NCBI GenBank assembly: GCA_016709155.1
Contig: JADJEI010000013.1
Location: 904,093-968,092, forward strand
Length of the DNA stretch: 64,000 nt
Direction: 5' to 3'
Source: Ignavibacteriales bacterium
GTDB taxonomy: Bacteria > Bacteroidota > Ignavibacteria > Ignavibacteriales > Ignavibacteriaceae
Positions 4,813 through 50,374 of this stretch are shown here, piece after piece. Numbering within the stretch: position 1 is the first letter of the stretch; every line of letters begins with the position of its first letter. The notes under the pieces are model-generated. The model was not told where the DNA came from. It did not search any database and saw only the letters and a program-made list of their open reading frames with translations. The position numbers and the translations under genes were made by a program.

Positions 4813-4834
4813 AATTTAGAATTTAGTTTTATTA

Positions 4835-8659: not shown

Positions 8660-8732
8660 ATATTTTTGGAATCAACTTCCAATTGCATTGTCATTGAAGG
8701 AATTGGTATTGGTGAAAATAGAATTGAATTCC

Positions 8733-8800: not shown

Positions 8801-8885
8801 GTGATCAGTCTTATAATCATTGCGATTATCTGAATTATTTTGTTTCTTAATTAACCCAATCATCATCAATTAAAGGAGTCTTTAT

Positions 8886-10631: not shown

Positions 10632-10687
10632 TTCCATCTTAAAAAAGAGGTCGTCTTTTCAAAAGATGACATCTTTGATTTTTGACA

Positions 10688-10751
10688 AAGGCTGTTCAGC
10701 AATGGGCAGCCTTTTTTATTAGTTGACAATAGCAATTTTTATCCTTAAGTT
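10688..10751 (+). promoter_or_regulatory. terminator + TTGACA-N17-TAAGTT promoter module, copy 2
   Basis: AAGGCTGTTCAGCAATGGGCAGCCTTTTTT, then TTGACA 10723..10728 and TAAGTT 10746..10751. Confidence 0.6.
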
Positions 10752-28837: not shown

Positions 28838-31060
28838 ATGATTGAAAAAAATGTAAATCTCCAACTCGTTTCAGAACATGGTTTAACTGAAGAAGAATAT
28901 AACAAAATACTCAAGATATTAAAACGCGTCCCCACCTATACCGAACTGGGGATATTCAGTGTAATGTGGAGTGAGCATTGCAGTTATAAAAATTCAATAG
29001 CACTTTTAAAAACATTACCGAGAGAAGGGAAAAAACTATTAGTTGGCGCGGGTGAGGAAAACGCAGGGCTTGTTGATATCGGAGACAATCTTGCTGTTGC
29101 ATTTAAAATCGAAAGTCATAACCATCCTTCGGCAGTCGAGCCATACCAGGGCGCAGCTACAGGGGTTGGGGGAATTATGCGAGATATTTTTACCATGGGT
29201 GCGCGTCCGATTGCTTCATTAAATTCACTTCGATTCGGTTCGTTGAATGATGCACGCACAAGATTTTTATTTGATGGTGTTGTCCGTGGGATTGGTGACT
29301 ATGGAAATAGTTTTGGTGTTCCAACTGTCGCAGGCGAGGTTTATTTTGATGAATGTTATCAGGACAATCCATTAGTCAATGCAATGGCTGTCGGAATTGT
29401 AAATAAAAATCTCGTCGCAAGCGCTGTGGCAAAGGGGGCAGGTAACCCAATAATGATTGTAGGATCTTCTACCGGCAGAGATGGAATACACGGTGCTACT
29501 TTTGCATCAGAAGAAATATCTGAAAAATCTGAAGCAAAAAGACCCTCGGTTCAAGTTGGTGATCCATTTACTGAAAAACTTTTACTCGAAGCAACCCTTG
29601 AAATAATTAAAAATGGCTGGCTCATCGGCATTCAGGATATGGGGGCAGCAGGTATTTCATGCTCTACAAGTGAAATGAGTGCAAAAGGAAATTCCGGAAT
29701 GAAAATTAATCTCGACAGTGTTCCTTTGCGGGAACAAGGGATGACGGCATACGAAATCATGCTTTCTGAAAGCCAGGAGAGAATGCTTTGCTGTGTTAAA
29801 AAAGGTTATGAAGAAAAAGTTAAAGAAGTTTTTACTAAATGGGATTTGAATTGTGAAATCATTGGTGAAGTTACTGATCAAGGCTTATTAGAAATTGACT
29901 ATCAAGGAGAGAAAAAAACTTCAATGCCGGCTTTCGATTTGGTACTTGGCGGCGGTGCCCCGGTTTATTTTCGTGAAAGTATAGAGCCGAAGTACATTCA
30001 TGAATTACGTAAATTCAATTTTAAATCTCTACCGGAACCAAAATCAATTGAAGAAATATTTGAAAAAATATTCTCATCACCGAATATTGTTTCTAAAAAA
30101 TGGGTTTATGAACAATACGATTCGATGGTTCGGACAAACACTATTGTCGGTCCTGGTTGCGATGCTGCCGTCGTTTTTATTAAAGGTACGAAGAAGGCAC
30201 TTGCCATGAAAACAGATTGCAACGGAAGATATGTTTACTTGAATCCGCATGAAGGCACAAAGTTGGCGGTTGCTGAAGCAGCAAGAAATATTGTCTGTTC
30301 TGGTGGGAAACCACTTGCGATTACAAACTGTTTAAATTTTGGAAATCCATATAAGCCTGAAATGTACTGGCAATTTAAAGAAGCAATTGCCGGAATGGGC
30401 GAAGCCTGCAGATATTTCGACACACCTGTTACAGGCGGTAATGTTAGTTTCTACAATGAGTCTCAAAACGCTGCTGTGTATCCCACGCCCACTATTGGAA
30501 TGGTAGGTCTAATTGAAGATCTTAAAAATGTTACCACATCCTATTTCAAAAATGAAAATGATCTTATCTATCTTTTAGGCGAGGATTTCGAGGAAATTGG
30601 AGGAAGCGAATATCTGAAAATTATTCATGGAAAAGTTGCCGGTGATTGTCCTAAAATTAATCTTGCCACAGAAAGTATTCTTCAAAATACCGTGTTAGAA
30701 TTAATTGAAGCAAAATTAATAAACTCAGCTCATGATATTTCGGAAGGCGGTATCGCTTGTGCACTGGCTGAATGTTGTATAATTAATCGAGAGAAAATGA
30801 TTGGCGCTGAAGTGAATATACCAATAAAAAGCAGGGTTGACTTTTCTCTATTCTCGGAAAGTCAATCTCGGGTTTTAATAAGTATTGATATAAAAAATCA
30901 GAATTCAGCAGAAGATATCTTGAATAAGGCTAAGCAGCCATTTATATTAATTGGTAAAACAGGCAGTAACGTTTTAATAATCAATAAAAAAATAAGAATT
31001 AGTTTAGCAAACCTTGCAGATATTTATTTTAATACGATATCCAGAATTATGAATGAATAA
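28838..31060 (+). CDS. purL: phosphoribosylformylglycinamidine synthase subunit PurL
   Basis: [30 protein letters not shown], repeated AIR-synthase-like domains, ~740 aa. Confidence 0.95.
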
Positions 31061-32024
31061 AAAAGCATTACTAAAAAAAATAAAATCATTTGAAGTTTAT
31101 GAACTTTTCAGAAAAGTAAGATTTTTATTTAATGTTAAGCCGGACTATAACAAAGTAAAGATATTCATTCTGCATTATTTTGGTGGTCTATATAAACGAA
31201 TTGACACCCACCATGTTTTTTTATTTGCGGGAGGATTGGCTTTTTCATTATTCGTTTGTATTGTTCCGTTTACTCTGATAATCTTTTGGATACTTGGAAA
31301 TTTTTTAGACTCTGCCGAAGTCGAACTGCAGCTTAACTCGTTAATTCACACAGTCATTCCCTACGAAACATATTCTAATTTTGTTCAGGATATTATTTTC
31401 AAAAGAATTTATGAAGTGATTGAATATAAAAATATTGCGGGCGTTGTCGGTTTTACCGGATTATTTTTTGCAGCAAGCGGGTTCTTTAGCAGTGTAAGAA
31501 CTATTCTTAATAAAGTTTATGGCACCGATGAAGACGTAAGTTTGGTCTTGGGTAAAATTAGAGATTTCGCTTTGATTATTCTGGCTTTGGTTGTGCTGCT
31601 TGTTTCTACTTTCATTATCCCCGCCCTGGATATACTCCGAAATCTTTCCCAAACAATTCCGCTTTTTCACTTTTTTCAATTAGGAATTTTTCAGAAAATA
31701 TTCACCACCCTTTTCTCACTAACGATTCTTTATTTTATTTTTTCAGTAATGTACTCGGTAGTTCCTACTGTAAAGATTAAGAAACGAGCAGTACTTGTTG
31801 GAGCAATGTGGGCAGCGCTTCTTTGGGAAACTGCTAAACAGGCATTCGGTTACTATTTATTTAATTTAGCTTCCTGGGGTAAAATCTATGGTACTTATAC
31901 CTTAGTAGTTGTTGTGGCTTTTTGGATTTACTACTCCTCAATAGTTTTTATTATTGGTGCAGAAATAGGTATGCTGTATCATGAGCGTTTAATTGGAAAA
32001 TTATCTTTGGATGAGAAATTGTAA
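31053..32024 (+). CDS. YihY/BrkB family membrane protein
   Basis: Six TM helices. GGLAFSLF ... [12 protein letters not shown] pattern. Confidence 0.8.
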
Positions 32025-32182
32025 TCAATTTTTATTAATCGGTAAAATTATCTCTTGCTTTTGTTTAATTCTCTTTCTAAATTTCCTACGCCAATACAGA
32101 AAGGAAAATTTTTTAGTTTGAAAAGGATGTACTGGGAGTCATTCTTAATGAATATAAATAATTCTAAAATAATGAGGTAAGT

Positions 32183-32659
32183 ATGAAAAATTATTTGAGG
32201 GTTACTATTGTTTTTTGTTCGATTGTTGTATCAATTTTTAGTCTTAGTTGTTACAAGGCGCCGGTAGAAATATCTTACAATATTGATGTTTGTGCCGAAT
32301 GCGGTATGCTTATTAGTGATCAGCATTTCGGTGCTGAAATAGTTTTACGCAACGGCAAATATCTAAAATTTGATACAATTGACTGTTTAATAAAAACTGT
32401 ACTTGATAAGGATGTTAAAGTTAAACAGATCAACTCAAGATGGGTTGTGGATTACTCCAGACCATCTAATTTTATTTACCTGCCAAATGCAATTTTTTAT
32501 AAGGGCGATAAAATAAAAAGCCCATCGGGTAATAACATTATTGCTGTTGAGGAGAAGGAAGTTGCTGAAAGAATCCAATCTAAACATGGCGGGAAGATAC
32601 TTTCTTTTAGAGATGTAATAGATTTTATTAAAAAAAATCAGTTAGCCGCCAGCCTTTAA
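32183..32659 (+). CDS. nosL: NosL-family copper-chaperone-like lipoprotein
   Basis: Lipobox LSC. CAECGMLISD metal-binding motif typical of NosL. Confidence 0.7.
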   Translation: MKNYLRVTIVFCSIVVSIFSLSCYKAPVEISYNIDVCAECGMLISDQHFGAEIVLRNGKYLKFDTIDCLIKTVLDKDVKVKQINSRWVVDYSRPSNFIYLPNAIFYKGDKIKSPSGNNIIAVEEKEVAERIQSKHGGKILSFRDVIDFIKKNQLAASL

Positions 32660-32707
32660 TTTCCATTATAGTTTTATTTGTTTATTGGGTTATTTAGTGC
32701 TAATTTT

Positions 32708-32729
32708 AATCAGATAATTTAATCTGATT
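32708..32729. promoter_or_regulatory. 8-6-8 perfect inverted repeat abutting the Rrf2 start codon (candidate operator)
   Basis: AATCAGAT aattta ATCTGATT, ending 3 nt before ATG 32733. Confidence 0.45.
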
Positions 32730-32732
32730 ATT

Positions 32733-33164
32733 ATGACAGTAATATTTTCTAAAAAATGTGAATATGGAATCCAGGCGATTCTCTACTTAGCAGCGCACAA
32801 TGGCAAAGGACTGATAGTCTCAGATGAGATTGCAAACAATCTTAATATCCCCAAAGAATTTGTTTCCAAAATTTTACAAAGCCTGACCGAAAGCGGTATT
32901 ATCAATTCCAAAAAAGGAAGGGTTGGCGGTTTTACGCTCGGGAAAAACCCTGACCAAATTACTCTCTTGGATATCGTTGAAGCTATTGACGGGCTTGAAG
33001 TATTTAATAGTTGTGTGCTTGGATTTCCTGAATGTTCTCCCGAAAAACCTTGTCCCCTCCATGATAAATGGGGTAAGCTTAGAACCCAAGCCTATAATAT
33101 GCTGGCGGATGAAACTATTGATGCCTTCAGGCAAAAGACTTTGGATAAAATTTCTAAAAAGTAA
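32733..33164 (+). CDS. Rrf2 family transcriptional regulator (NsrR/IscR-like, three C-terminal Cys)
   Basis: Winged-helix N-terminus (YGIQAILYLA...). Cys cluster CVLGFPECSPEKPCPLH. Confidence 0.85.
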   Translation: MTVIFSKKCEYGIQAILYLAAHNGKGLIVSDEIANNLNIPKEFVSKILQSLTESGIINSKKGRVGGFTLGKNPDQITLLDIVEAIDGLEVFNSCVLGFPECSPEKPCPLHDKWGKLRTQAYNMLADETIDAFRQKTLDKISKK

Positions 33165-33194
33165 TACGAAATAATATTTCCTCCATTAGAAAAG

Positions 33195-34331
33195 ATGGAT
33201 ATGACCGGCAAGAAAAAAATATTAAAAAATTCTGCAAATAAAATTCAGCACTACAGATTTTTTATCCAGTCAACATTCGCAATTCTATGTATATGGATAG
33301 GAATTGAGTTTTATCTTTTTGCAACTTATTTAGAAAGCGGGGGGCATGCTCAATTTTACCAGAGACCTGCCGGTGTTGATGGTTTTCTGCCGATTAGTTC
33401 GTTCATGAGTTTCTATATTTTCCTCACTACCGGTATCATCCATCAAGCTCACCCTGCCGGTTTATTTATTTTCCTCTCCATTATTTTAATGTCAATAATA
33501 TTCGGTAAGTCTTTTTGCAGTTGGATGTGTCCGATTGGTTTTATTTCAGAATTGATAGGAGATTTTGGTGAAAAGATATTCAAGCGAAAGCTACGGCTGC
33601 CAAAAATATTAGATTATCCTTTGAGGAGTGTCAAATATCTTTTGCTGGCTTTTTTATTTTATGCAGTTTTGTTTCTTATGACAGACCTTGCTGTAAATGC
33701 ATTCCTCGATAGCCCATACAATCTTGTCGCCGATTTAAAGATGTACTATTTCTTTGCTGATATTTCCCGCTTCACCATTATTGTTCTTTCGGTGCTTTTC
33801 ATCTTTTCAATTTTTATCAGAAATTTTTGGTGCAGATATTTATGTCCCTACGGTGCGCTGCTCGGAATATTTTCTCTTCTCAGTCCACACAAAATAAAAC
33901 GCGAGGCTAAAAGTTGTATTGATTGCGGCTTATGTTCTAAAGCTTGTCCTTCTATGATTAGAGTTGATAAAGTTAAAACTGTTTTTTCTGATGAATGCAC
34001 CACCTGCCTTAGCTGTGTTGATGCTTGTCCGGTTGCTGATACTCTCCAACTGAAAAATATTTTTTACAAAGAGAAAAAAATCAGCGGGAGGGCAGTTGCT
34101 ATCGGTGTTGTTTCAATTTTTCTTTTAGTTACAGGGGCAGGGATGATTTCCGGCAACTGGCAAAACTCAATTTCGAAAGATGAATATTTAATCCACTATA
34201 AGGAGATGAATAGTTACGGCCATCCGACAGGGACTAATGCAATTAAAAAATTTAATGAATCCCATCAGCAAAAAATTATCGGGAAGGATGATGATTCATC
34301 AAAAGTGGTTCTTCGTTCTGAAATAAAATAA
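33195..34331 (+). CDS. NapH/NosR-type membrane polyferredoxin (4Fe-4S binding)
   Basis: TM helices with CSWMCPIG and CRYLCPYG motifs, plus CIDCGLCSKACP and CTTCLSCVDACP clusters. Confidence 0.8.
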   Translation: MDMTGKKKILKNSANKIQHYRFFIQSTFAILCIWIGIEFYLFATYLESGGHAQFYQRPAGVDGFLPISSFMSFYIFLTTGIIHQAHPAGLFIFLSIILMSIIFGKSFCSWMCPIGFISELIGDFGEKIFKRKLRLPKILDYPLRSVKYLLLAFLFYAVLFLMTDLAVNAFLDSPYNLVADLKMYYFFADISRFTIIVLSVLFIFSIFIRNFWCRYLCPYGALLGIFSLLSPHKIKREAKSCIDCGLCSKACPSMIRVDKVKTVFSDECTTCLSCVDACPVADTLQLKNIFYKEKKISGRAVAIGVVSIFLLVTGAGMISGNWQNSISKDEYLIHYKEMNSYGHPTGTNAIKKFNESHQQKIIGKDDDSSKVVLRSEIK

Positions 34332-34424
34332 ATGGGGAGTTTTGGCTTACTGCTAAATAATTGTTGCATGTAAGTTGTGAGAATAATTCATTATTCAAAT
34401 TCTACATAAAAAGGAGAGGTAGAT

Positions 34425-35658
34425 ATGAAAAGTATAATATCAATTCTGTTTTTTCTTTCAATTTCAATTTCCAACTTTGCGGCTACTTGTATTGAATGCC
34501 ACAGGCAAATTACACCTAACATCGTAACTGACTGGCAGCTCAGCAAGCATTCTGCAAACGATGTTGATTGCTCGGTGTGTCATGGTGATCAACATACAAA
34601 TGCAAATGACTTTAAGAATGCACTTATCCCCACCCCTGAAACATGCAAGCTTTGCCACGAAACTCAGGTTGAGCAATTCAGTAAAGGTAAACATGCAATG
34701 GCTTGGGCTTCGCTTAAGGCTATGCCGACTTTCCACATGCAGCCAATGGCGATGACTGAAGGTATGAAGGGCTGCGGCGGTTGTCATAAGATCGGTTTAA
34801 AATCAGAAGAAGAAATCAAGCAGCTTAAAAGTGAAGGTTCCGGTTTTGGTCTTGCGTCCTGCGACGCCTGCCATACCCGTCACACATTTTCTGTTGTTGA
34901 GGCTAAACAGCCGCAGGCATGTCAAACCTGCCACATGGGTTTTGACCACCCCCAATGGGAAATGTATTCAAGTTCAAAACATGGTGTTCGTAGTTCGTTA
35001 AAGCAAATGGATCTTCTTCCTGAATCTTCTTCTGCACCCACCTGTCAAACTTGTCACATGCAAGAGGGCAATCACGAAGTCCGTACTGCCTGGGGATTTC
35101 TCGCTGTCCGTCTGCCAATGCCTGAAGATAAGCAATGGACTGAGGACCGCGTAACTATATTACAAGGGCTGGGGGTTCTCGATCCTCAAGGCAACCCCAC
35201 CGGAAGGCTTGATGTTGTTAAAGCTGCTGATGTTGCTCGCCTTACTCAGGAAGCCTGGCAAACCGAGCGCGATAAGATGATCAAAACTTGCGGTAACTGT
35301 CACTCCGAGAATTTTGCAAAGGGTGAACTTGAAAAAGGCGACAACATGATCAAAGAAGCTGATCACCTGATGGCGCAGGGTATAAAAATTATTGCCGGGC
35401 TTTATCAGGATGGTATTATTCCTAAGCCTGAAGCTTATGCTTATAATTTCCCCGACTTGCTCACTTTCCATGACGCACCGACGGTTATTGAGCAAAAACT
35501 TTTTTGTGATGTTCCTTGAGCACAGGATGAGAACTTTTCAGGGAACTTTTCACGCGAGCCCTGACTACGCTCTCTGGTACGGCTGGAGTGAAATGCAGCA
35601 GGATTTAACTGAGATTAAAGAAATGGCTATGCAGATGAGAAAAGATTTTAAGCAGTAA
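34425..35658 (+). CDS. periplasmic octahaem c-type cytochrome (HAO-like family, tentative); frameshift at T6 35501..35506
   Basis: Signal peptide and eight CxxCH motifs. Removing one T joins ...TVIEQKLF to VMFLEHRMRTFQGTFHASPDYALWYGWSEM... (ORF 35392..35658 frame). Confidence 0.75.
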
Positions 35659-35692
35659 AAGTTTTTAGCTCCCCCCTCATAGTTGATGAATA

Positions 35693-35731
35693 AAAAAAAC
35701 CTCCGGAGTTTTTAAGCTCCGGAGGTTTTTT
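35693..35731. terminator. bidirectional terminator between convergent genes
   Basis: AAAAAACCTCCGGAG tttttaag CTCCGGAGGTTTTTT. Confidence 0.8.
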
Positions 35732-35777
35732 AAATAATTATTATCAACAAACAATAAATGAACCCCATTAAATATTT

Positions 35778-36389
35778 TTACGGTACTGCGATAGTTGCTA
35801 CATCAGATTCTAATCCAACTTCTACATCACCGATAACATAGACGGCTTTATACTCACGCATCTCTGCACCTGCAGCGAGGTTTTCGCGTGTGTCTATGTA
35901 AGGACTTTCGGTGTCAAAAGCTAAAAGTGTCCATTCAGTTTCACCTGCACGGCGGGTGTATATCTTCACTCCATCAGCAATACTTTTTTGAAATGAAATT
36001 CTAACATGCTGATTTGGCATAAGGAACAACTTCAATATTGGTTTCATTGTGTCTTTATCAACAAATGAATCAACACCTTCAATGCCAAGATCCTGACCGA
36101 TTGCTATAGTGTAATTCGGGTTTGCCTTCATCTGCCTTCCTTGAGCTCTGATTAGGTCATTTGCAATTTTTCGTTTTGCTCTTGTATCGGCGTACAGACT
36201 TTCCATATTTGCTTCGGCAGCAACCTGGGTGGAGTATGCAGTGCGGCAGGCACCCACCTTTGTGTTGGCTTCAGTTACCTGAGCCGGTGTGATGGCAAGC
36301 GCAACATTGTGCAGCGGCAGCTTGGTCAAATAATTTTCGTGAAATGTGTCCTGTTCATCAACAGGGCGGGGGATGAAATCCTTTTTCAT
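35778..36389 (-). CDS. hypothetical protein, paralogue of 18227..18859
   Basis: Clean 203-aa ORF, higher G+C than background. Same N-terminal KDFIPR start and C-terminal RRAGE...MREYKAVYVIGDVEVG module. Confidence 0.7.
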   Translation of the reverse strand: MKKDFIPRPVDEQDTFHENYLTKLPLHNVALAITPAQVTEANTKVGACRTAYSTQVAAEANMESLYADTRAKRKIANDLIRAQGRQMKANPNYTIAIGQDLGIEGVDSFVDKDTMKPILKLFLMPNQHVRISFQKSIADGVKIYTRRAGETEWTLLAFDTESPYIDTRENLAAGAEMREYKAVYVIGDVEVGLESDVATIAVP

Positions 36390-36574
36390 AAAAGGTCCTT
36401 TCTGAAAAAATTTTAAATTTGTTATTTATTAAAAGGAACCCTGCTTAATCCACGTTTATTCTCTTTTAAGCTATAAGAGTTCCAACTCAAACACCGGTTT
36501 CGGAATACCCAACTATTGTGCCATATTGATATTTGTTCTTTATTCTAAAAAAATAAAGAAAAGCACTTGGATGT

Positions 36575-36935
36575 GAGTTGCCGACGGTTAAAAATTACAT
36601 GCTGAAGATAAAAATTACCTGCCCAACGGTGGAAAGGTTGGCGCCAACGCTATGACGGGGGGTGGCAACGCGCCCGGGTTTGTAAGCCCCGCTGTACGGT
36701 TGACGGCAACCGTGAGACGGCGCAGACCAACCGTCGCGCAGATGCCTTCCCCGTGTGACGGGTGCCCACCGACAAGACGGCGTTGCAGGCAACCGTGACA
36801 TGGGCGGCTTCCCCCGTGGGACGGTTGGTCCTCACTTTCCGACGGTTATCGCCAACCATCCAAAAGTTAGTGGCAACCGTAGCACGGTTGGTAAAAAGCT
36901 TCGATTTTAGAGTATTTTCAACGGTTATTGGACAT
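36575..36935. repeat. G+C-rich non-coding block packed with ACGGTTG/CAACCGT heptamers and short hairpins
   Basis: Seven exact heptamers (36696, 36707, 36728, 36790, 36821, 36874, 36884) and about as many one-mismatch variants. Palindrome GTTGGCGCCAAC at 36637..36648. ~65% G+C at 36661..36840. Confidence 0.8.
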
Positions 36936-36990
36936 TAATTGTTGCGTGGGTGAAGGGAAATTAGGAAGCATTAAAGAAGTTTAACGTTTC

Positions 36991-37101
36991 GGGGCTTAAA
37001 GAAGTGGCGGGTTAGAAGCACGAACTGTCAACCTACCACAACTGTTTATTAGAAGCACAAATGTTTGATTAACCACTTCACCCGCCATTTCTTTTAAGCC
37101 C
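36991..37101. other. long imperfect hairpin (~20-bp stem, 66-nt loop), possible structured RNA or recombination site
   Basis: GGGGCTTAAAGAAGTGGCGGGT (36991..37012) pairs with CACCCGCCATTTCTTTTAAGCCC (37079..37101), with one bulge and one G-U. Confidence 0.55.
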
Positions 37102-37270
37102 TTGTTATCGGTAGCTCTTCTGTCTGTCCGAAGATGTGTCGTGTCAAGTTTGCACACACTTTGTCCGAAGCGAATTACATTAGAAGCTATGTCCGTCCAA
37201 TTACGCACAGTGCGTTGACAAAATAAATTAAAACATTGAAGAGTGTATTTTTTTTGCGTTGATTTTTTCA

Positions 37271-37828
37271 TCAGTTGTATCTTTTGTTTACTGTTTCCAT
37301 ATAATCTACCACAACTGCATTCATTTTATTTCGATACCACCGAAAAAAGAAATTAGGAACTTTTGCAGCTTCTTGTCGGCTGATATAAATTTCGTCTTGT
37401 ACGTCACGAAGTTCGTCTGTGCCAATATATATTTTATTGAGAATTATTTCGTCCAAATATATTGAGATAGCTTTTCGTCTATCAATTGCAGATGAGTGTC
37501 CACGAATAAGAGTAATAAAGTGAGTGTAAAATGAGAGTATAGAAAAGTAAATTAAAAAAATAGTCATGCCATTTGAGTTGTAAGAAATAAGAAATATCCA
37601 AAGCACGATTGAATAGGAAATAAGAAATCCCGCCAACCATCTACAATAAATAATGCGTAACTCAATATCCCAACTTGTGTTTGAATGTTGCAAAACTGCT
37701 ACGGAAATATTATGAGGAATCGTTGTTGAAATGTTTGGTGAATACCAATCTATAATTTCATTGCCTTTGTATTCAAGAGAAAATTTTGAAACTTCGAATG
37801 GTCTGGCTTCTTTAAGGTTGACTTCCAT
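37271..37828 (-). CDS. 2-TM membrane protein with charged helical C-tail (candidate membrane effector, second half)
   Basis: TM helices LAGFLISYSIVLWIFLISY and MTIFLIYFSILSFYTHFITLI. Overlaps the upstream gene by 17 nt. Confidence 0.6.
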   Translation of the reverse strand: MEVNLKEARPFEVSKFSLEYKGNEIIDWYSPNISTTIPHNISVAVLQHSNTSWDIELRIIYCRWLAGFLISYSIVLWIFLISYNSNGMTIFLIYFSILSFYTHFITLIRGHSSAIDRRKAISIYLDEIILNKIYIGTDELRDVQDEIYISRQEAAKVPNFFFRWYRNKMNAVVVDYMETVNKRYN

Positions 37829-38135
37829 CGTAAATTAAAAGTGCAGTGTCAAACTCTTCCTTAAATATTGCTCCCTTAGAAGTATTTCCTTTGAAAGTAT
37901 CTGCGAATATTTGAACTAAAACAGTAAGCAAAAAAGAACAACCGAATAAAGCAAGTTTTATGCTTTCGTCTTTGATAAGAACATAGGCGATAGGGTAAGC
38001 AAAAGCAAGAAAGATTAAAAAGTAAGTAACTTTTATTTCACCATTCTTTGCTTTTGTATATGCAACTGTTGATGCTTTTAGCAGCTTAATAAATTCAGGT
38101 TCGTTTTGTTTTATCAGAATTTCATTCATTTTCAT
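37812..38135 (-). CDS. 2-TM membrane protein (candidate membrane effector, first half)
   Basis: TM helices VTYFLIFLAFAYPIAYVLI and LALFGCSFLLTVLVQIFA. The start overlaps the upstream ORF end by 14 nt. Confidence 0.6.
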   Translation of the reverse strand: MKMNEILIKQNEPEFIKLLKASTVAYTKAKNGEIKVTYFLIFLAFAYPIAYVLIKDESIKLALFGCSFLLTVLVQIFADTFKGNTSKGAIFKEEFDTALLIYDGSQP

Positions 38136-38738
38136 TGTTGTTTAATTTCCAATCAGGATAAATAGCTTCATTTACTATTTTCTCTGCGATTTCAAAAAGG
38201 TAATCGGGAATAGTGACTGAATTTTCCTTTTTTGTTTTTACAATTTCCTCTGCCGTTTTTTTTGCTAAAGATTTTAATGAGGGATGGCCCAGTGAAATTC
38301 TTATATGGTCGCCTTTGTGTGATTCTCCATACACTTGAAAAATCTTTTGCTCTATTTCGGTTTGCCAATTATTCATTATAGTTTTACAAATTGGCTTGAG
38401 AGTATCGGGATAAGCCTGATAAGCATTCAACAAATTGGTGATAGCCCTTCTTTCAATTGTTCTCCAATTGGCAAAGATGTATTCACTTTTGTCTTCCATA
38501 AATAATTTTGATGAAAAGGAATATCCATCAATCCATAATAGAAATCCCTGTTTAATTTAAGCTTTCTGTTTGACAAAAAATTGTTAATGATATTGCTTAT
38601 AATGATTGTTACAAAATCATGAGTTGTTTCAATAGAAGAATAATATCTTAATGCAGACAAAACCGAGAATAAATATTTTCCTGAATTCCAATCAGGGTCG
38701 CTCAACCTTTTTTGAGCGGCTTTTTTTTTCCGCCTCAT
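38122..38738 (-). CDS. C-terminal continuation of the repeat protein (two overlapping ORF fragments) or a separate 125-aa protein
   Basis: ORF 38427..38738 continues the repeat consensus (AAQKRLSDPDWNS) in another frame after T9 38721..38729. ORF 38122..38499 overlaps it by 73 nt in a third frame. Confidence 0.45.
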
Positions 38739-39773
38739 TTTCTTTTTGATTAAAAGCGGCTACGACAATATCATGTTGAAGCGAAGTGATGTTTTGGTCG
38801 CTCAATATTTTATGAGCGGCTTGTTGTTTTTCCGTCTCATTTCCTTTTTGATTAAAAGCGGCTACGACAATATGATGTATTAGCGAAGTAATGTTTGGGT
38901 CGCTCAATATTTTATGAGCGGCTTGTTGTTTTTCCGTCTCATTTTCTTTTTGATTAAAAGCGGCTACGACAATATCATGTTGAAGCGAAGTGATGTTTGG
39001 GTCGCTCAATATTTTATGAGCGGCTTGTTGTTTTTCCGTCTCATTTTCTTTTTGATTAAAAGCGGCTACGACAATATCATGTTGAAGTGAAGTGATGTTT
39101 GGGTCGCTCAATATTTTTTGAGCGGCTTGTAGTTTTTCCGTCTCATTTCCGTTTTGATTAAAAGCGGCTACGACAATAACAGTTTGAAGCGAAGTGATGT
39201 TTGGGTCGCTCAATATATTTTGAGCGGCTTGTTGTTTTTCCGTCTCATTTCCTTTTTGATTAAAGGCGGCATTTACAATTATCCCATTGATTGAATAGAT
39301 GTTTGGGTCGCTCAATATTTTTTGAGCGGCTTGTAGTTTTTCCGTCTCATTTCCTTGTTGATTAAAAGCGGCATTTACAATTATCCCATTGATTGAATAG
39401 ATGTTTGGGTCGCTCAATATTTTTGAGCAGCTAATTGTTTTTCCGTCTCATTTTCTTTTTGATTAAAAGCGGCTACGACAATATCATGTTGAAGCGAAGT
39501 GATGTTTTGGTCGCTCAATATTTTATGAGCGGCTTGTTGTTTTTCCTCTTTGCCCGCTTTTTTGAAATAGTTTAACCATGCTAAATTGGGATAAACTTTC
39601 TTGTCATAGAGCTTATCTAAATATCCTACTATTTGAACGGGAGTTAAATTGATATCCTCATCAGTTAAATGATTAAGATATGACGGATATAAGTTGCCTT
39701 TTTCAAATAATATATTTATCAACAATAGTTTCTCCTGACCATCAGCAAATATTTGATTCTGGTATTGCATCAT
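38692..39773 (-). CDS. tandem 34-aa repeat (TPR-length) protein; two ORFs joined across T5 39420..39424
   Basis: Repeats of SDPNITSLQHDIVVAAFNQKENETEKQQAAHKIL. ORFs 39414..39773 and 38692..39417 differ by a 1-nt deletion relative to sister units. Confidence 0.7.
38697..39560. repeat. 102-bp tandem repeat array (about 8 full units plus degenerate ends), coding
   Basis: GTCG landmarks at 38797, 38899, 39001, 39103, 39205, 39307 and 39409 (exact 102-bp spacing), then 39510 (101 bp). Confidence 0.9.
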
Positions 39774-39778
39774 AGCAG

Positions 39779-41248
39779 CTAAAAAAATGATGAGAAATTA
39801 TCATAGCTTGGTGCATAGTTGTCAATTACAATATTCAGAAATTGTTTCAATAATAAATCATCATATTTTTTTGTGACAGGGTTATAAAATTCCAGCCATC
39901 CGTCTAAAATCACTCCGGCTAATCCTTCTTCGGCTAATTTATCGTGGTTGAATTGAACAAAATCTATTTGTTGAAGTTTTTTGTTTCTTAATGATGTATT
40001 CCTTCCTTTGTTTATATAACTTTTTACCCGTTCAAGAATAGTTGAGCGAGCATTCCAACTCGTAAAGGCGTTACTTACTTTATCATTTTCATTATAGGTA
40101 TCCGCAATTTTCAGAAATGTATCAAAGTCAATAAATATTTTGTGGTTGGTGTAAATGCAAGCCCAGTTGTGCAATGCTTTTGCCATTCCGGGATATACGG
40201 CATTTATTTTTTTCAAATCACTTTTCACAATGCTTTTAAAAGCCAAGCCGGGTTCAGAGAAATCAATTTCCATAGGGTCAAATTTTTCATTGCTCACTCG
40301 TGCAATTACAAACAACAAGAGGAATAGACTCGTATTATAATACTCCTGCTTCTTTGTAACTTTTTCTTTGGCATCTTTCCATTCTGTGTGAAGCTCCATG
40401 ATTTCAGCAATAATTTTTTCGTTTTCGGTTGATTGGAGATGAAATACATTTAATGGATCAGGTAGGTTATTAATATATTCCTTCCCCGAAGTTTCCCTGT
40501 CACCAATAATAACTCTGATGTTGTTTATGGCTTGTGTTTTAAGTAAAAACTCTTTTGCTTTTTCCTTTAGATTATCTGTAAGACGATACCAGTCTTCAAT
40601 TATTACTAAATAATTTCTAAAACGGTCCTCTTGTATTTGTATCAATCCATTATCCGTAAAGTTTTCAAACCCCCTGTCTTTTACCCAAATAAATTTAAAA
40701 GATTCGTTGCATAGTTCAACTGCCAATCGTCTAAGCAAGGTAGATTTACCACAGCCACCAAAACCATGCACTACTGCTACAACTTTGTATGTTCTTGGTT
40801 TATCAAAGCAACTAGAAGCGATTGTTTTAACTTTTCCGTAATCATTCCTTACCACATCATAATTATTTATTACACCATACCACTGGCAATTTTCGTCCTG
40901 TTTTGCAGTGTAGAAATCAGGTTTTGTAAATTGTTTTCCGTTCTTAATCCTTCTTATGAAAGTGCTGTTAATTACTTCAGCACCTTCTATATGTATGTTT
41001 TCAATTTTGTCTTTGTTGTCTTGCAGGAATTGGAGAAAAAGTTTTGTGCCTTTGATACATTCATCTTTATATAACTTAATAAAAGTGTAATCCCTATCCT
41101 TAAATTCAGCTTTCTCTGCAACATCATCATTCTTCAAATCAAAGTGGTAGATTTTTATGTCATTTCCTTTTAATCCTTTAAAAAACTTGTCGAATACAAT
41201 CTGTTCATTAAATTGAGTGCCGAGAATAATTAGTTTTTTTTGTTTGAA
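39779..41248 (-). CDS. P-loop STAND/NACHT-like NTPase segment
   Basis: Walker A VVHGFGGCGKSTLL and Walker B YLVIIEDW. The frame is open upstream to 41248, beyond the ORF-track TTG at 41137. Confidence 0.75.
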   Translation of the reverse strand, partial: FKQKKLIILGTQFNEQIVFDKFFKGLKGNDIKIYHFDLKNDDVAEKAEFKDRDYTFIKLYKDECIKGTKLFLQFLQDNKDKIENIHIEGAEVINSTFIRRIKNGKQFTKPDFYTAKQDENCQWYGVINNYDVVRNDYGKVKTIASSCFDKPRTYKVVAVVHGFGGCGKSTLLRRLAVELCNESFKFIWVKDRGFENFTDNGLIQIQEDRFRNYLVIIEDWYRLTDNLKEKAKEFLLKTQAINNIRVIIGDRETSGKEYINNLPDPLNVFHLQSTENEKIIAEIMELHTEWKDAKEKVTKKQEYYNTSLFLLLFVIARVSNEKFDPMEIDFSEPGLAFKSIVKSDLKKINAVYPGMAKALHNWACIYTNHKIFIDFDTFLKIADTYNENDKVSNAFTSWNARSTILERVKSYINKGRNTSLRNKKLQQIDFVQFNHDKLAEEGLAGVILDGWLEFYNPVTKKYDDLLLKQFLNIVIDNYAPSYDNFSSFF

Positions 41249-41844
41249 TCAATATCCCCATAAATAACGTTATATAAAGAGTTTTGTTCTGCTCCAAGTT
41301 TAGTATATGAAGCGGAAGTAAAAACAATATTATCCAAGGTAGTTTCTTCATTCATTAATCCGTGAAGGTGAAGAATACAATTATCATTACTATCCATTGT
41401 ATACGCCGGATAATTAAAAACCGGATACTTTTTCCCTTTATGTTTTGATTGAATTGTAGTTAAAACATTATCAAAATTAAAAGTGAAAATTGAATACCAG
41501 TTCGGCAGAAAAACCGAATCAAACAACTCGAAGTTAAATGCCGTTTCATCCACTAAAAATAAATTTCTTAGCTCATTAAGCAAATTAGGATTATTAGCAA
41601 TTTTGTTTTCCCATACCGATGCAGCAGCTTTATATTCTGTAACTGATTTTGTAAATTTTTCATTTGTAAATTTTATGAATTGTTCAGCCGTTGGAATTGT
41701 ACTAAATTCTTTGTTTTTATTCTTGACTCCAAAACTGAAACCAGCACCGAGAACCAAACAAAAATGCCCTTCTCTTAAGTCATCAAAAAAAGAATTGTCC
41801 GGCTTGAAATCGGCAATCAAAACAATATGGTTATCTTTGCTCAT
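41230..41844 (-). CDS. SIR2-like (SIR2_2-type) domain segment
   Basis: FCLVLGAGFS glycine-rich start, ILHLHG catalytic-His context, IVFTSASY. The expected LIILGTQF strand follows in the next frame after the T8 run 41234..41241. Confidence 0.7.
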   Translation of the reverse strand: MSKDNHIVLIADFKPDNSFFDDLREGHFCLVLGAGFSFGVKNKNKEFSTIPTAEQFIKFTNEKFTKSVTEYKAAASVWENKIANNPNLLNELRNLFLVDETAFNFELFDSVFLPNWYSIFTFNFDNVLTTIQSKHKGKKYPVFNYPAYTMDSNDNCILHLHGLMNEETTLDNIVFTSASYTKLGAEQNSLYNVIYGDIDSNKKN

Positions 41845-42187
41845 ATGTGAAAAACAAAAAAATGTGCTGGGGCAAAAATTAAAAAAACTTCATTGCGGCT
41901 GTGCGATAAAGTTATCATTCCATTTGGTTTCGTATTGAAAAATGTTCGTTTCATATCATTCAGTTTTAAGTTTCACAGTCGCCAATAGGGTTGCACATAA
42001 CTTGTTTATACCAGCCATAAAGTTGCACATATACAATGGCATTGCCATTAGCTTTGCGTTATAAACGGCTGTTATTATTTCTGGTACAAACATAAAAAAT
42101 AATATTATAATTCATCAAATGGTGATTTCATTTTCCGCAAACTTTCATCTCACTCATCACTTCTCTTGTCTACTCTTTGTGGAGCGA

Positions 42188-42949
42188 TTATTTTTTCCTG
42201 ATGTAGATGATTTTAATATTCTTTTTACCTGTGTCACGCTCATCAATTTCAAATCTGTTCAGGCTTTTAATTAAGGGCAGCATTTTGGGGAAGCCGTAAT
42301 TTCTGGGGTCAAAGTCGGGTTTCTTTTTCAGCATCAGGTTCCCTAATTCGCCTAAAAAAGTCCAGCCATTTTCGTCGGCAAGGTCAGTTATGCTGTCGGT
42401 TAATAGATTGATTAAATCAGAGTCAACTTTGCTCAAAGGATTATTGTCAGGTGGTGCTGCATCCTTTGATATTTTTTTATGCCTGTCTGCCGGCTGTCTT
42501 GTTGTTTTTGTTTTTAAAATTTCGAGGTAGATGAATTTATCGCAGGCGGTTATAAAAGGATTTAAGGTTTTCTTTTCTCCAATTCCAATTACTTTCATAC
42601 CTGCTTCTCTAAGTCTTGTGGCAAGTCTTGTAAAATCGCTGTCGCTTGAAACAATACAAAAGCCACCCACCTTACCGGTGTATAAAATATCCATCGCATC
42701 AATTATAAGTGCGCTGTCACTTGCGTTTTTTCCTATCGAGTAGCTGTACTGCTGTATTGGAGTAATGGCATTTTCTAAAAGCACGTGTTTCCAGCCGGAA
42801 ACGGATTGCTTTGTCCAATCAGCATAAATTCTTTTAAAGGTAGGTGTACCATACTTTGCAATTTCCTCAAACATTTCTTTCACGTTTGCGTAAGGCACAT
42901 TGTCGGCATCAATTAATACTGCTAATTTCAGGTCATTTTGGGTTTCCAT
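42188..42949 (-). CDS. NYN (PIN-like) nuclease domain protein with C-terminal LOTUS/OST-HTH-like module
   Basis: LAVLIDADNV...IYADW...GKNASDSALIIDAMD...FCIVSSDSDFTRLATRLRE.G NYN signature. C-terminal GWTFLGELGNLMLKKKPDFDPRNYGF. Confidence 0.8.
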   Translation of the reverse strand: METQNDLKLAVLIDADNVPYANVKEMFEEIAKYGTPTFKRIYADWTKQSVSGWKHVLLENAITPIQQYSYSIGKNASDSALIIDAMDILYTGKVGGFCIVSSDSDFTRLATRLREAGMKVIGIGEKKTLNPFITACDKFIYLEILKTKTTRQPADRHKKISKDAAPPDNNPLSKVDSDLINLLTDSITDLADENGWTFLGELGNLMLKKKPDFDPRNYGFPKMLPLIKSLNRFEIDERDTGKKNIKIIYIRKK

Positions 42950-43116
42950 AATTCAGTCCAATTAATTATTTAGAGAATTAATTAAGCGCCGGAAAACAAC
43001 TTAACCAGGTTGTATTCCATTTTTAATTACAACCAAAAATACTATGAAGTGGTGAAACTTGATACTGCTATGAGAAATAATCATATCAGCAGAGAAACAG
43101 TTACTCCAATGTCTAA

Positions 43117-43665
43117 TTAACTATTGCTGTTAGCTCGTGAATAAATAATTGTGTTTCTTTTCTGTAGTTCTTCTTTATGTTTTTGCTCGAATAAATAATT
43201 ACGTTTAAAATTATTCCGCTCCAAAAGTTTTATAGAAGGCAGATTTTCTTTATGTGTAAATGCTTCAAGAGATTTGAGTTTCATATCGTTAAATCCGAAA
43301 TCAATAACTTTTTTAATTGCTTCGCTCATAAACCCCATCCCTTGAAATTCCGGTTTCAGTTCATATCCGATTTCGCCGCTTGCATCTTCGAATGAAATAT
43401 TCCAGATGCATATAGTCCCGATTACTTTATCATCATCTTTTAATGCAATCGCCCAATAAATCCAGCCATTTTTGTCAATGCCGTCATTTATTTTTTTTAT
43501 AAACAACTGTGCCTCGTCAATTGATGCAGCAGGGCTTCTTTCGAGATATTTATTTACCCCATCGTTTGATCTTATGGCGTATAATTCTTTATCATCACTA
43601 AGCCTCAACTTTCTGAGTGTGAGCCGCCCGGTGGTCAATTCTTTGAATATAATGCTGTCTGACAT
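43117..43665 (-). CDS. GNAT family N-acetyltransferase (RimJ/RimL-like)
   Basis: LRKLRLSD...IGTICIW...IGYELKPEFQGMGFMSEA acetyl-CoA-binding pattern. Confidence 0.8.
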   Translation of the reverse strand: MSDSIIFKELTTGRLTLRKLRLSDDKELYAIRSNDGVNKYLERSPAASIDEAQLFIKKINDGIDKNGWIYWAIALKDDDKVIGTICIWNISFEDASGEIGYELKPEFQGMGFMSEAIKKVIDFGFNDMKLKSLEAFTHKENLPSIKLLERNNFKRNYLFEQKHKEELQKRNTIIYSRANSNS

Positions 43666-43707
43666 TTTATGGCTTTCTATTGAAATAAATTTCGTATCAA
43701 TTCAATT

Positions 43708-44400
43708 TTAAAAATAAACTGATAAACCAAATTTTATAGATGAAGGCATCAGATTGAAGCCCTTTCTTTTGCTCGAAATGTTTTTGCCTAAATAGGTTAC
43801 ATCCTGAGTGGATTCACTTGTTAAATAATATGCACGAACACCGTATTCAGCAGAGAGCGTCATTTTATTATTGAACATCCACTCAACACCGGCTAATAGT
43901 TCGGCACCGAAATTCCACTGGGTGGATGTACTGGAGGAATAAAAATCAAATACATTTGCAGTATCAATATCTTGTTTTGAAAAAGCATAACTGACATAAG
44001 GACCTGCGCCAATAAAAAATCCAACGTCTTCCATAGTGGTTAAATAATTTAAGTATTGCAGATTAACTGAATAAGTCTGGTAGTCGAACGAATTTGTATA
44101 TGAAGGATGAACATAAAAAGAATCAAGTTCTGATGCTGTAATATCATCATCAGAGTTATTTATTTGAGTAGAAACCCCTACCCGAATTGCTGATCGGTTG
44201 TCAAAGTGATACTTTCCTGAAAAAGTAGTTCCTTGAAAATGAGATAGTGTAAAATTGCTGCTGATCTGAAATTGGAGGGCAAACTTTCCGTTAAGTTTAT
44301 CAAGGTAGGTGCTGTCCTGTGAATAAACTTGTACGGTAGATAGTATGAGAAGTGAAATTGCAAGTACTGAATTGCGAAAGAGTAATGATAATGAAAACAT
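43708..44400 (-). CDS. outer-membrane beta-barrel protein
   Basis: Signal peptide, alternating-hydrophobicity strands, C-terminal ...FGLSVYF. Confidence 0.7.
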   Translation of the reverse strand: MFSLSLLFRNSVLAISLLILSTVQVYSQDSTYLDKLNGKFALQFQISSNFTLSHFQGTTFSGKYHFDNRSAIRVGVSTQINNSDDDITASELDSFYVHPSYTNSFDYQTYSVNLQYLNYLTTMEDVGFFIGAGPYVSYAFSKQDIDTANVFDFYSSSTSTQWNFGAELLAGVEWMFNNKMTLSAEYGVRAYYLTSESTQDVTYLGKNISSKRKGFNLMPSSIKFGLSVYF

Positions 44401-44644
44401 AAATCCTCCCGGATAAAATGAAATAATTAATTGAGTTTAATTTATCAATGATAACTTTTACTTTTATCAAGAGTAAACTTAAGTGTAACGGAGTGATCTT
44501 CAAAAACTAAAATTATACACACTGCTGTCCGAAATAATTTTAATATCAGTAAAAGAAATTAAAATTGAATTGTAATGAGAAGGATTTTTTATATAACTAA
44601 AAACAGTCTCTATTACCTATTAGGCAAGTTGATTCTACAGAAGA

Positions 44645-44746
44645 GCAAACCGTTAAAACGGTTGCAGTTAAATATTTTTTAAGTTCTCAACGGGATTAAT
44701 CCCGTTGAGAATGTGAATCAAAGAATGATTAACCGTTTCAACGGTT
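44645..44746. repeat. three AACCGTT/AACGGTT-type palindromic hairpins in a divergent intergenic region
   Basis: GCAAACCGTTaaAACGGTTGC (44645..44665); perfect 28-nt palindrome TTCTCAACGGGATTAATCCCGTTGAGAA (44684..44711); AACCGTTtcAACGGTT (44731..44746). Confidence 0.8.
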
Positions 44747-44914
44747 TCAAAGTTCGATTAGTAAAGTAGTGTATTTAGAATTAGTCAAAAACATTCAATA
44801 TTTTTTCAAAAAAATTATTTTGGAAAGATGTGATTATACAACACTATTTTTAATCCCTTCATTATCAGTGCCTTGAGTATTATTTTTGTTTAGTAAAAAA
44901 AATAAAGAGATGTT

Positions 44915-45886
44915 ATGTCAGAGTATTCAATTTATAAAAAATCTAACCTGTCAGAAGAAGAATGGGATAGTTTTGTGGATAGTTCAGATAACGGAACTAT
45001 TTTTCACAAAAGAGCTTTTCTTAATTATCACGCTAAAGATAAATTTAATGATGCTTCAATTGTTGTCACAAAGGATAAAAAAATCCTTTCGCTATTAACT
45101 GCGGCTGTGATTGAAAGGGAGGGCAAAAAAATCCTTAACTCTCATCCCGGGGCAAGTTACGGTAGTTTTGTGTATAAGCCTGATCTGAATTTTAAGGAAG
45201 CACACGAACTTGTGGATATACTAATCGAACATCCTAAAAACTTAAAGGTGGAGCGAATTCAGTTGACGCTGCCGCCGATAATTTATCAAACTAAATATTC
45301 CAACTATATTGATTTTGCTCTTTACAGAAACGGTTTCAATTATCTGAAAAGGGAGGTGTCAAGTATTGTCCAATTAGATTTTGAAAAGGATAGTTTACTT
45401 AATACCTATCGAGCTGAAGCACGTACTGCAACTAAGAAAGCACTTAAAAGCGGAATTGAAATTGTTGAATGCGAAAGGTTTGATGAGTACTACGAAATCC
45501 TAAAGAAGAATTTGAAATTGCGGCATGGTGTCAATCCCGCCCACACAATTGATGAATTGAAACTGCTAAAAAAAATATTTCCTGCAAAAGTTAGATTGTG
45601 GGGAGCATTCTTAAAAGACAAATTAATAGCAGGTGTTTGTAACTTCTCGGCAAACTCAAATGTTGTGCTTGCGTTTTACATTAGTCACGATGAAGCATAC
45701 CAGGAATATCGCCCGGTAAATTTACTTTTTTATGAAATAATGAATCGCTATCGTGAGGAGGGGTTTAAGTTTTTAGACTTCGGAATATTCACTGTGATAA
45801 TGGAACCAAATTGGGGATTGGCAAGATTTAAAGAAAATTTTGGAGCGCGTGGAATTTTTAGAGACACATTTTATAAAGATATTTAA
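44915..45886 (+). CDS. FemAB-like / GNAT-fold (Acetyltransf_6-like) transferase, tentative
   Basis: N-terminal W..F......G.IFH...FL.YH pattern and ~320-aa size are typical of FemAB-related proteins in polysaccharide loci. Confidence 0.5.
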   Translation: MSEYSIYKKSNLSEEEWDSFVDSSDNGTIFHKRAFLNYHAKDKFNDASIVVTKDKKILSLLTAAVIEREGKKILNSHPGASYGSFVYKPDLNFKEAHELVDILIEHPKNLKVERIQLTLPPIIYQTKYSNYIDFALYRNGFNYLKREVSSIVQLDFEKDSLLNTYRAEARTATKKALKSGIEIVECERFDEYYEILKKNLKLRHGVNPAHTIDELKLLKKIFPAKVRLWGAFLKDKLIAGVCNFSANSNVVLAFYISHDEAYQEYRPVNLLFYEIMNRYREEGFKFLDFGIFTVIMEPNWGLARFKENFGARGIFRDTFYKDI

Positions 45887-46962
45887 TGGCGAAAATTCTA
45901 CACATTGCTCCTGAAAATTTTGCTGGTGTACCAATCAGTTTTGTAAAGATGCACAGGCAATATGGTGATGAATCCCGGCTGATAACACTTCATAAAACTA
46001 AATTAGATTTTGAAGAAGATCTCTGTCTTAATCTGCCCCTTCCTGAATTCAAATTAGCAAAGCTATGGAGAAGTAAAAAAGTCAGCGAGATTCAACAGCA
46101 TAAAAAAATTGCCGCTCCTTTTTTTTCACCCAAAAATATATTCGAAGAGTTATATTTTAATTGGAGTGATGGGCAGCGAAGGGCACTTGTTGATGAGGTT
46201 ATTACGAAACTCAATCTAAATGAGTACGAGATTATTCATTACGATGGCGGTCTTGATTTTTTCCGCAACCCAACTCAGGCATTAAAGTGGAAGAAGGAGG
46301 GGAAGAAGATTGTCTGCTGTTATTATGGAAGTGATCTGCGCAGCCGCGGACTAATTCGTGAGCTTGATCAAATATCAGATCTAAATATTACATCGGAGTT
46401 TGATCATCTCGCATTAAAAAAAAATATTGAATATCTTTTTTATCCTTACGATGGATCAGACCTTCCCGTAAAATCAAATTCAGAAAATGATAGAGTTCGA
46501 ATTGTTCACTCGCCAACAAACAGAAAGTATAAAGGCACTGATTTAATAATATCTGTAATTGAAAAAATTAAAAAAGAAAAACAAATTGAATTTGTGCTTC
46601 TTGAAAATCTTCATCGAAGTGAAGTACTAAAAATAAAAAGTACCTGCGATATAAGCATTGATCAGGTAGGTGGAATAATGGGCGGGACGGGATACGGCAA
46701 AGCGGGGCTCGAAACTCTTGCAATGTCCATTCCAACTATTACAAATATGACGAATGAATATGAAAAATGGCTGCCGGAAAATCCGTTCGTTGTTGCAAAT
46801 AATATTGACCAACTTTACTTAAAGCTAAATGAACTGATTGAAGATAGACTTTTACGTGATGAATATGGAAGGAAAGGACAGGAGTGGGTTAAAAAATATC
46901 ATAGCTTCGAAAGTGTAAACAAGCGGCTTAAAGAATTATACAGATCTTACGGTATAACATGA
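45886..46962 (+). CDS. glycosyltransferase-like protein (GT-B C-terminal half recognisable)
   Basis: ...GKAGLETLAMSIPTITN resembles the GT4 E-x7-E region. Start overlaps the upstream stop. Confidence 0.5.
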   Translation: MAKILHIAPENFAGVPISFVKMHRQYGDESRLITLHKTKLDFEEDLCLNLPLPEFKLAKLWRSKKVSEIQQHKKIAAPFFSPKNIFEELYFNWSDGQRRALVDEVITKLNLNEYEIIHYDGGLDFFRNPTQALKWKKEGKKIVCCYYGSDLRSRGLIRELDQISDLNITSEFDHLALKKNIEYLFYPYDGSDLPVKSNSENDRVRIVHSPTNRKYKGTDLIISVIEKIKKEKQIEFVLLENLHRSEVLKIKSTCDISIDQVGGIMGGTGYGKAGLETLAMSIPTITNMTNEYEKWLPENPFVVANNIDQLYLKLNELIEDRLLRDEYGRKGQEWVKKYHSFESVNKRLKELYRSYGIT

Positions 46963-49621: not shown

Positions 49622-50374
49622 ATGAATGAGCCAAATAAAATTTCTGTAATTATCATTACAAAAAATGAAAATCAAAATATTACCGATTGCCTTAATTCTG
49701 TAAAATGGGCTGATGAAATCATCATCATTGATGCAGAAAGTTCGGACGATACAATAGAACTTGCAAAAAAATTTACTGATAAAGTTTTCATCAAAAAGTG
49801 GAATGGATATTCGGATCAGAAAATGTATGCGCTTTCATTAGCAAAGAATGAATGGGTTTTAAGTCTCGATGCCGATGAAAGAATTACTGATGAATTAAAA
49901 AATGAAATTATTTTTTCTGATCTTTCCATTGCTGACGGATATAAAATTTCGAGAGCTAATTATTTTTTAGGCAGACTTATTCGAGGCTGCGGCTGGAGTC
50001 ACGATTATCAGTTAAGGTTATTTAGAAAATCAAAAACAAAAGTGACTGAAAGAATGGTACACGAAGGTTTTATCGTTGACGGGAAAATTTCTGAACTGAA
50101 ATCTTCGATGCTTCATTATTCATATCGAAATTTTCATGATGCTGTGAATAAAATTAATAAGTACTCTACTCTTGAAGCACAAGAAAAATATCAGCGCAAA
50201 AAAGTAAATGGTTTTACAATCCTGCTAAATCCTTTTATCGCATTCGTACAGTTTTTTATTTTCAGAAAAGGATTTATTGATGGTACATATGGATTGCTCG
50301 TTTCCATTATGCATGCAATGACCAAGATGATGATGTACATGAAAATGTGGGAACTGCAGAAGAAACAAAAATGA
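49622..50374 (+). CDS. glycosyltransferase family 2
   Basis: ISVIIITKNE...IIIIDAESSDDT...LSLDADE (DxD) motifs. Confidence 0.85.
   Translation: MNEPNKISVIIITKNENQNITDCLNSVKWADEIIIIDAESSDDTIELAKKFTDKVFIKKWNGYSDQKMYALSLAKNEWVLSLDADERITDELKNEIIFSDLSIADGYKISRANYFLGRLIRGCGWSHDYQLRLFRKSKTKVTERMVHEGFIVDGKISELKSSMLHYSYRNFHDAVNKINKYSTLEAQEKYQRKKVNGFTILLNPFIAFVQFFIFRKGFIDGTYGLLVSIMHAMTKMMMYMKMWELQKKQK

Follow-up and report, generated by a model that had tools for sequence, protein, structure and literature searches.

The S-4TM family, reportedly defined by Burroughs and colleagues in 2015, is represented in PADLOC v2 solely as the "4TM effector" of CBASS. Membrane effectors of other architectures are used in related systems, one example being the TM-Macro protein ThsA of type II Thoeris. 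As to the 4TM effectors of CBASS, an operon of this kind, EcCdnD12-4TM, protects Escherichia coli (bioRxiv 10.1101/2023.05.21.541620), and an analogous role has been proposed for the SLATT proteins encoded beside TIR or PNPase domains (Kaur et al., 2020; PMC7159879). As to the sensors that combine SIR2 and STAND domains, those of Avs5 (AVAST type 5) are single-gene antiphage sensors (PMC11897194, PMC12931631), and a text search of one of these papers (PMC12931631) returns no mention of transmembrane, accessory, or operon components. The S_4TM family is known, its pairing with SIR2-/TIR-STAND sensors outside CBASS is little described, and no description of such pairing was found in the literature searched. 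The conserved occurrence of this pairing is the lasting biological point of the analysis presented here, of a locus of an Ignavibacteriales bacterium that, as assembled, appears to encode something different.

The locus is on the minus strand of a 64,000-nt stretch of DNA, the whole of which is referred to as the window. Two overlapping ORFs, each with two transmembrane helices, had been singled out in an earlier note as a possible split, pore-forming 4-TM effector. Both are indeed present, the N-half ORF at 37812..38135 (107 aa, TM1-TM2) and the C-half ORF at 37271..37828 (185 aa, TM3-TM4 and C-terminal helices), overlapping by 17 nt, and the former does begin 14 nt before the upstream ORF ends (38122). 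The two hydrophobic helices per ORF are also recognized by Kyte-Doolittle analysis when mapped on an intact homolog, P0122, in which the hydrophobic segments are at residues 34-55, 58-81, 165-187, and 192-211; the four helices in a single chain of about 290 aa are true of P0122, while the assembly as written presents them as two plus two. The S_4TM family, brought up in the note, proved to be the correct one: the profile PF18159 of Pfam ("SMODS-associating 4TM effector domain") matches the 107-aa ORF over profile positions 1-96 (E 1.6e-13, 51.1 bits) and the 185-aa ORF over positions 120-285 of 291 (E 7.5e-22, 78.5 bits), both scores exceeding the curated cut-off of 26.9 bits, and in a genome-wide profile search these two adjoining ORFs are the only matches in the genome. 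By comparison, L008, a relative with an intact gene, matches the profile at positions 1-282 with 177.7 bits. NCBIfam has no model for either S_4TM or its STAND partner. Judging from these sequence matches, the assignment of the gene at 37271..38135 to the S_4TM family of predicted membrane effectors is right, and based on Pfam, the homologs, and P0122, this stretch corresponds to a single gene of about 288 codons, assembled as two ORFs. It is our view, held with considerable confidence, that this one 288-codon gene has been cut by two losses of one base each, and that both losses most likely arose as errors in the consensus of a long-read assembly.

The relatives of the gene speak for a single protein. 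Of 300 genomes sampled from the order, four besides this one carry S_4TM in an uninterrupted frame; in three the match extends over the full profile (308-336 aa), and in the fourth a contig end truncates it. The closest of the same-order relatives, L006, reads FKEEFDVLLFGLPWKSTLAKVDHKEVSKLSTQYKG across the region in question, and the counterpart in the window is distributed over three frames, with FKEEFDTALL in the frame of the N-half ORF, (R)WKSTLKKPDHS in a third frame, and EVSKFSLEYKG in the frame of the C-half ORF. When the window frame read through, with an X at each break, was used as a query against a large protein collection, 175 relatives were retrieved at E <= 1e-10, with identities of 55-85%, some of them named by NCBI "S-4TM family putative pore-forming effector." The best 120 of these 175 are unsplit, measure 283-303 aa, and align with 94-100% of the query, with the exception of two proteins of 248 and 250 aa (86% covered) and of the 185-aa ORF of the window itself. 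A decayed member of the family was also noted, in a Bacteroidota MAG (L009, 6577-7242), which is 51% identical, contains three in-frame stops, and has no STAND gene upstream.

The positions of the breaks can be specified precisely. When aligned with the DNA of three intact relatives, the window shows just two gaps, each of a single nucleotide, at sites separated by 44 nt. One break, at 37837..37840 (listed as 37841), is a run of four T in place of the five found in the contigs L031-L034, and it moves the reading from the frame of the N-half ORF into the third frame. The other, at 37796 (listed as 37797), is a single C in place of the CC of L031-L034 (CA or CG in more distant relatives), and it moves the reading from the third frame into that of the C-half ORF. 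The stretch in between (37797..37836, minus strand) encodes the conserved segment FNLRWKSTLKKPDHS, as revealed by three-frame translation against L006, L008, and P0001-P0005, and it does so in the third frame only, which neither of the listed ORFs uses. As a result, the two ORFs together miss profile positions 97-119 of PF18159, including L102, W104, K105, and T107, each conserved at 90% or more across the family.

This bears directly on the proposal of a genuine two-gene arrangement, with two 2-TM subunits forming a 4-TM effector, or of its relative, a gene expressed through programmed ribosomal frameshifting. The ATG at 37828 and the 17-nt overlap do resemble coupled genes, and each half does retain its two TM helices, but we consider a functional split of either kind extremely improbable. 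The relatives examined all have a single chain of some 288 aa, nearly identical contigs are intact (see below), none of the best 120 of the 175 relatives is split, and the two-ORF layout is likewise absent from the approximately 35 loci inspected. A split would need independent losses of one nucleotide at two sites with 44 nt between them, would throw away the four near-invariant residues listed above, and would leave aside the fact that the partner gene is also broken, five times. The arguments raised in favor of two genes stand in part only. The overlap of the ORFs is itself not at a base run, but the actual breaks are outside it, at the T4 run and at the C; a TAA does precede the ATG at 37828 by three codons, but it is no sign of a second gene, as the bases of both are shared with the intact genes of L027 and L030, where they are out of frame. 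Programmed frameshifting was considered separately and rejected, as restoring the protein would take a -1 shift at each of two sites separated by 44 nt, with neither of the sites presenting a slippery heptamer, and with the partner gene broken as well.

Intact versions of the gene, nearly identical to the one in the window, are available from short-read data. The protein P0122 (288 aa), which belongs to the 90% cluster of the 185-aa ORF, originates from the ENA and Logan short-read assemblies, was found on six short-read contigs, and equals the window read-through except for three C-terminal residues. At the DNA level, the contig L031 (5.85 kb) is 98.3-98.5% identical to the window between 41832 and 35888, and L032-L034 are 99.3% identical. 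On these contigs, the gene upstream forms a single open frame of at least 1204 aa, overlapping the S_4TM gene by 14 nt. The 102-nt repeat array of this upstream gene in the window (38695-39549) is, by BLAST segment offsets, one unit longer than its counterpart in L031 (2287-3042), and this difference represents either real copy number or a collapse in the short-read assembly.

The upstream gene, at 38122..41889 of the minus strand, comprises a SIR2_2 domain, an nSTAND_NTPase5 domain, tandem repeats of 34 aa, and a conserved C-terminal domain of about 115 aa. In the window it is present as six frame pieces that together rebuild one protein, with the SIR2 motifs GAGxS, NFDN, and HLHG intact, and all of the pieces have counterparts in intact genes located directly before S_4TM on other contigs. 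Its stop overlaps the S_4TM start by 14 nt (38122..38135, minus strand), precisely as in L031, and overlaps of 8-35 nt are found in L019, L024, L030, L037, L042, L045, and L059. From this arrangement, the SIR2-nSTAND5-repeat gene and the S_4TM gene are predicted to be translationally coupled.

Could these breaks be real? One possibility is that both genes have become strain-specific pseudogenes, lost to slipped-strand deletions in a decaying locus, a cost or self-toxicity of the cassette being one conceivable cause. We regard this as improbable, though clearly less so than a functional split. Frame breaks occur at about 1.3 per kb in the locus versus about 0.05 per kb over the remainder of the window, a density 10-30 times higher, and decay is known elsewhere in the family, in the S_4TM gene of L009 with its three in-frame stops, and in the SIR2-STAND partner of L021, which carries an IS element. 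The nature of the lesions argues to the contrary. When the window was compared with the intact contigs outside the repeat array, the indels besides the two in the S_4TM gene were A9 to A8 at 41242, T8 to T7 at 39788, A5-C-A5 to A9 at 38726, and A5 to A4 at 38491, all four within the SIR2-STAND gene, and G5 to G4 at 36753, in non-coding DNA, every one of them a loss of a base by the window at a base run. No in-frame stops are present in any frame piece of the locus, i.e., there is zero nonsense in about 1,550 codons, and the divergence from the intact contigs is only 0.04-1.5%. Within the SIR2-STAND part (2285 nt), two indels are found versus one substitution, while a natural mutation spectrum would yield far more substitutions per indel. 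Moreover, like lesions affect genes elsewhere. One example is a GT4 glycosyltransferase, split in the window into 50347-51129 and 51098-51487, and another is a glycerate kinase, split into 51477-51803 and 51758-52603. Full-length proteins for both (370-372 and 376 aa, respectively) are present in the 90% clusters, from many assemblies, and a contig 96.7% identical to the window places the lesions at 51074 (A7 to A5) and at 51769 (A8 to A7). The former gene, at 50347-51487, is classed as GT4/GT1. A further example is the TonB-dependent receptors: of the 13 genes for these in the genome, two (G000, C6:201680-203852 and C13:418221-420598) are each broken over two frames, with one break at GAATTTTTGG.

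The losses at base runs, the lack of nonsense mutations, the high ratio of indels to substitutions, and the housekeeping genes being hit all suggest an insufficiently polished long-read assembly (14 contigs, the largest of 2.08 Mb). Thus the breaks are, with good probability, consensus errors of a long-read assembly under-calling base runs, in which case the organism probably has an intact gene. Some features fit this explanation less smoothly. The loss at the CC site is atypical of errors in long runs, and a uniform error process does not account for the density of breaks in the locus; low local coverage or strain mixing would be needed to explain it, and a lower coverage of a strain-variable island would do so. 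The genome-wide density of overlapping same-strand ORF junctions places the locus at approximately the top 1%, but with normal operons making for a high background this measure is not decisive. Consensus error remains the preferred explanation, and a practical caution follows, that overlapping ORF pairs in this assembly need to be checked against nearly identical contigs before being read as designed splits.

With the gene restored, its placement directly behind a SIR2-STAND gene, pointed out in the earlier note, turns out to be a linkage kept in other genomes, as represented by metagenomic contigs; it is from these contigs only, and not from genomes of the same order, that the linkage is evident. 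Of the closest STAND homologs in the order, one (G051) has no S_4TM alongside, and for another (G295) the contig ends before the downstream neighbor. On the metagenomic contigs, one example is a 1396-aa protein with SIR2_2 and nSTAND5 domains, whose gene precedes S_4TM with a 20-nt overlap (L019). Another is a 1001-aa nSTAND5 protein, with an overlap of 17 nt (L024), in which a SIR2 domain was not seen, the contig beginning 235 nt upstream. Further full-length examples of SIR2-nSTAND5 followed by S_4TM are presented by L041, L042/43, and L045, and partial examples by L027/35, L030, L037, L038, and L059. The SIR2_2 domain, the nSTAND_NTPase5, and the repeats are contained in one protein in L019, L042, and L045, as they also are across the pieces in the window. 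In L027 (1427-1676) and L028 (1248-1497), a 222-nt spacer separates the STAND stop from S_4TM, and in another frame this spacer again matches the STAND C-terminal domain, as a partial duplication.

The pairing extends beyond a single type of sensor. In L021, a SIR2-NB-ARC gene is broken by an IS element and followed by a TPR and by S_4TM of the same subfamily; in this Spirosomataceae MAG (2251-8864), the IS element is an rve transposase, and behind the interrupted gene come a fragment of a TPR and then S_4TM, itself intact. In L025, S_4TM is located behind a TIR-AAA_16-TPR gene, and in L026 it is preceded by a TIR-WD40 gene and an ATP-grasp-like gene and adjoined by a Gabija-like pair. The latter locus (3939-10718) is a compact defense island, encoding TIR-WD40, R2K_2 (274 aa), S_4TM, OLD/TOPRIM AAA_15, and a UvrD helicase. 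The remaining members of the subfamily adjoin unrelated genes, in several cases housekeeping ones, or stand in defense islands.

Compared with the 4TM effectors of CBASS, the protein is alike in matching the profile from end to end when the frame is followed across the breaks, and, in its intact form P0122, in its size of about 288 aa with four TM helices and in its all-helical model; in addition, the intact relative P0005 (of L019) matches nine of the PADLOC models for the CBASS "4TM Effector," at E 1e-32. It is unlike them in its partner, which in the window is a SIR2-STAND NTPase. Membership in CBASS type I was considered and rejected, as no SMODS/CD-NTase domain is found in the neighboring genes. 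Likewise, no SMODS was found beside this S_4TM subfamily (members at least 49% identical) in approximately 30 loci; the S_4TM genes of the order that do adjoin SMODS are distant ones, with 24-28% identity. The only SMODS gene of the genome, a 415-aa open frame (C13:473440-473925), is 468 kb away from S_4TM.

Compared with Avs5, the partner is alike in the order of its parts, an N-terminal SIR2, then a STAND NTPase, then a sensor region at the C-terminus, and it is unlike in that its NTPase is the nSTAND_NTPase5 of Pfam, and in being followed by a separate membrane gene, translationally coupled to it as judged from the overlap. A search of the partner against the PADLOC v2 models, those for Avs included, gave nothing at E <= 1e-3 beyond noise, and the STAND partners in general match no model there; a profile of the SIR2-STAND part, compared with PDB, retrieved no Avs5 chain at E <= 1. 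Assignment of the partner to Avs5 is therefore not supported by sequence, the resemblance being one of architecture, to which neither PADLOC nor PDB sequence profiles give any connection. In the systems with SLATT or 2TM proteins, a domain processing NAD or nucleotides (here SIR2 or TIR) is likewise carried by the sensor, and a small membrane protein with a gene of its own is predicted to answer to a nucleotide signal. The membrane protein in the window differs from these in belonging to the S_4TM family, and it differs from those of both SLATT and Thoeris systems in having no recognizable nucleotide-binding domain (Macro, SAVED, or SLOG), a nucleotide signal being putative here.

By AlphaFold 2, the intact S_4TM protein is modeled with a pLDDT of 93 and a pTM of 0.86, as an all-helical protein with four helices of 33-44 residues. 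The positive-inside rule suggests that the lysine-rich N-terminus, the conserved loop between TM2 and TM3, and the C-terminal helices are cytoplasmic; it is this TM2-TM3 loop that contains both break sites. Foldseek and sequence searches gave no significant match to a solved S_4TM-like structure, the best Foldseek match (E 0.2) being to the TM domains of ABC exporters.

From its family and its neighborhood, we infer that S_4TM and its partner form an antiphage cassette of two genes, in which S_4TM acts as the membrane effector. A scheme triggered by SIR2 or TIR seems the likeliest, as every fully resolved STAND partner carries one or the other. In such a scheme, the repeat arm of the STAND partner would sense a phage component, the STAND NTPase would then oligomerize, and the SIR2 domain of the oligomerized partner would cleave NAD+. 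S_4TM might then be triggered either by a NAD-derived nucleotide or by touching the STAND protein directly at its conserved C-terminal domain, and, once triggered, would breach the inner membrane, aborting the infection. The signaling step from SIR2 to S_4TM is purely conjectural, and the scheme as a whole would mirror, by analogy, both the proposal for SLATT proteins and the working CdnD-4TM CBASS operons. A broader proposal, which we make only tentatively and consider rather doubtful, is that the S_4TM subfamily may represent a dedicated second effector of SIR2-/TIR-STAND sensors, gated by a NAD-derived product of the SIR2 or TIR domain and distinct from CBASS, the sensors in question belonging to two or more NTPase families. 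A variant of lower probability is that runs in the locus, A9 and T8, serve as real on/off switches for a costly cassette. The broader proposal, if true, would amount to a STAND-based signaling system analogous to Thoeris or CBASS, and one that PADLOC v2 (2023) does not list, and if SIR2 or TIR does signal to S_4TM, then single-protein NAD depletion of the Avs5 type would be linked to membrane effectors gated by second messengers.

The DNA downstream of the cassette has features of its own. The region 34400-37300 of the window has a G+C content of 41-47%, versus 31-36% around it, and contains a multihaem cytochrome gene, a 203-aa ORF without a family, and a 91-aa ORF. In the G+C-rich part at 35400-37400, an Rfam search returned sub-threshold, terminator-like matches only, none of them tied to the cassette, and no tRNA was found at 30000-46000 of the window. 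The 91-aa ORF (36996-37271), which is called in L031-L033 as well, shares 1 nt with the stop of S_4TM.
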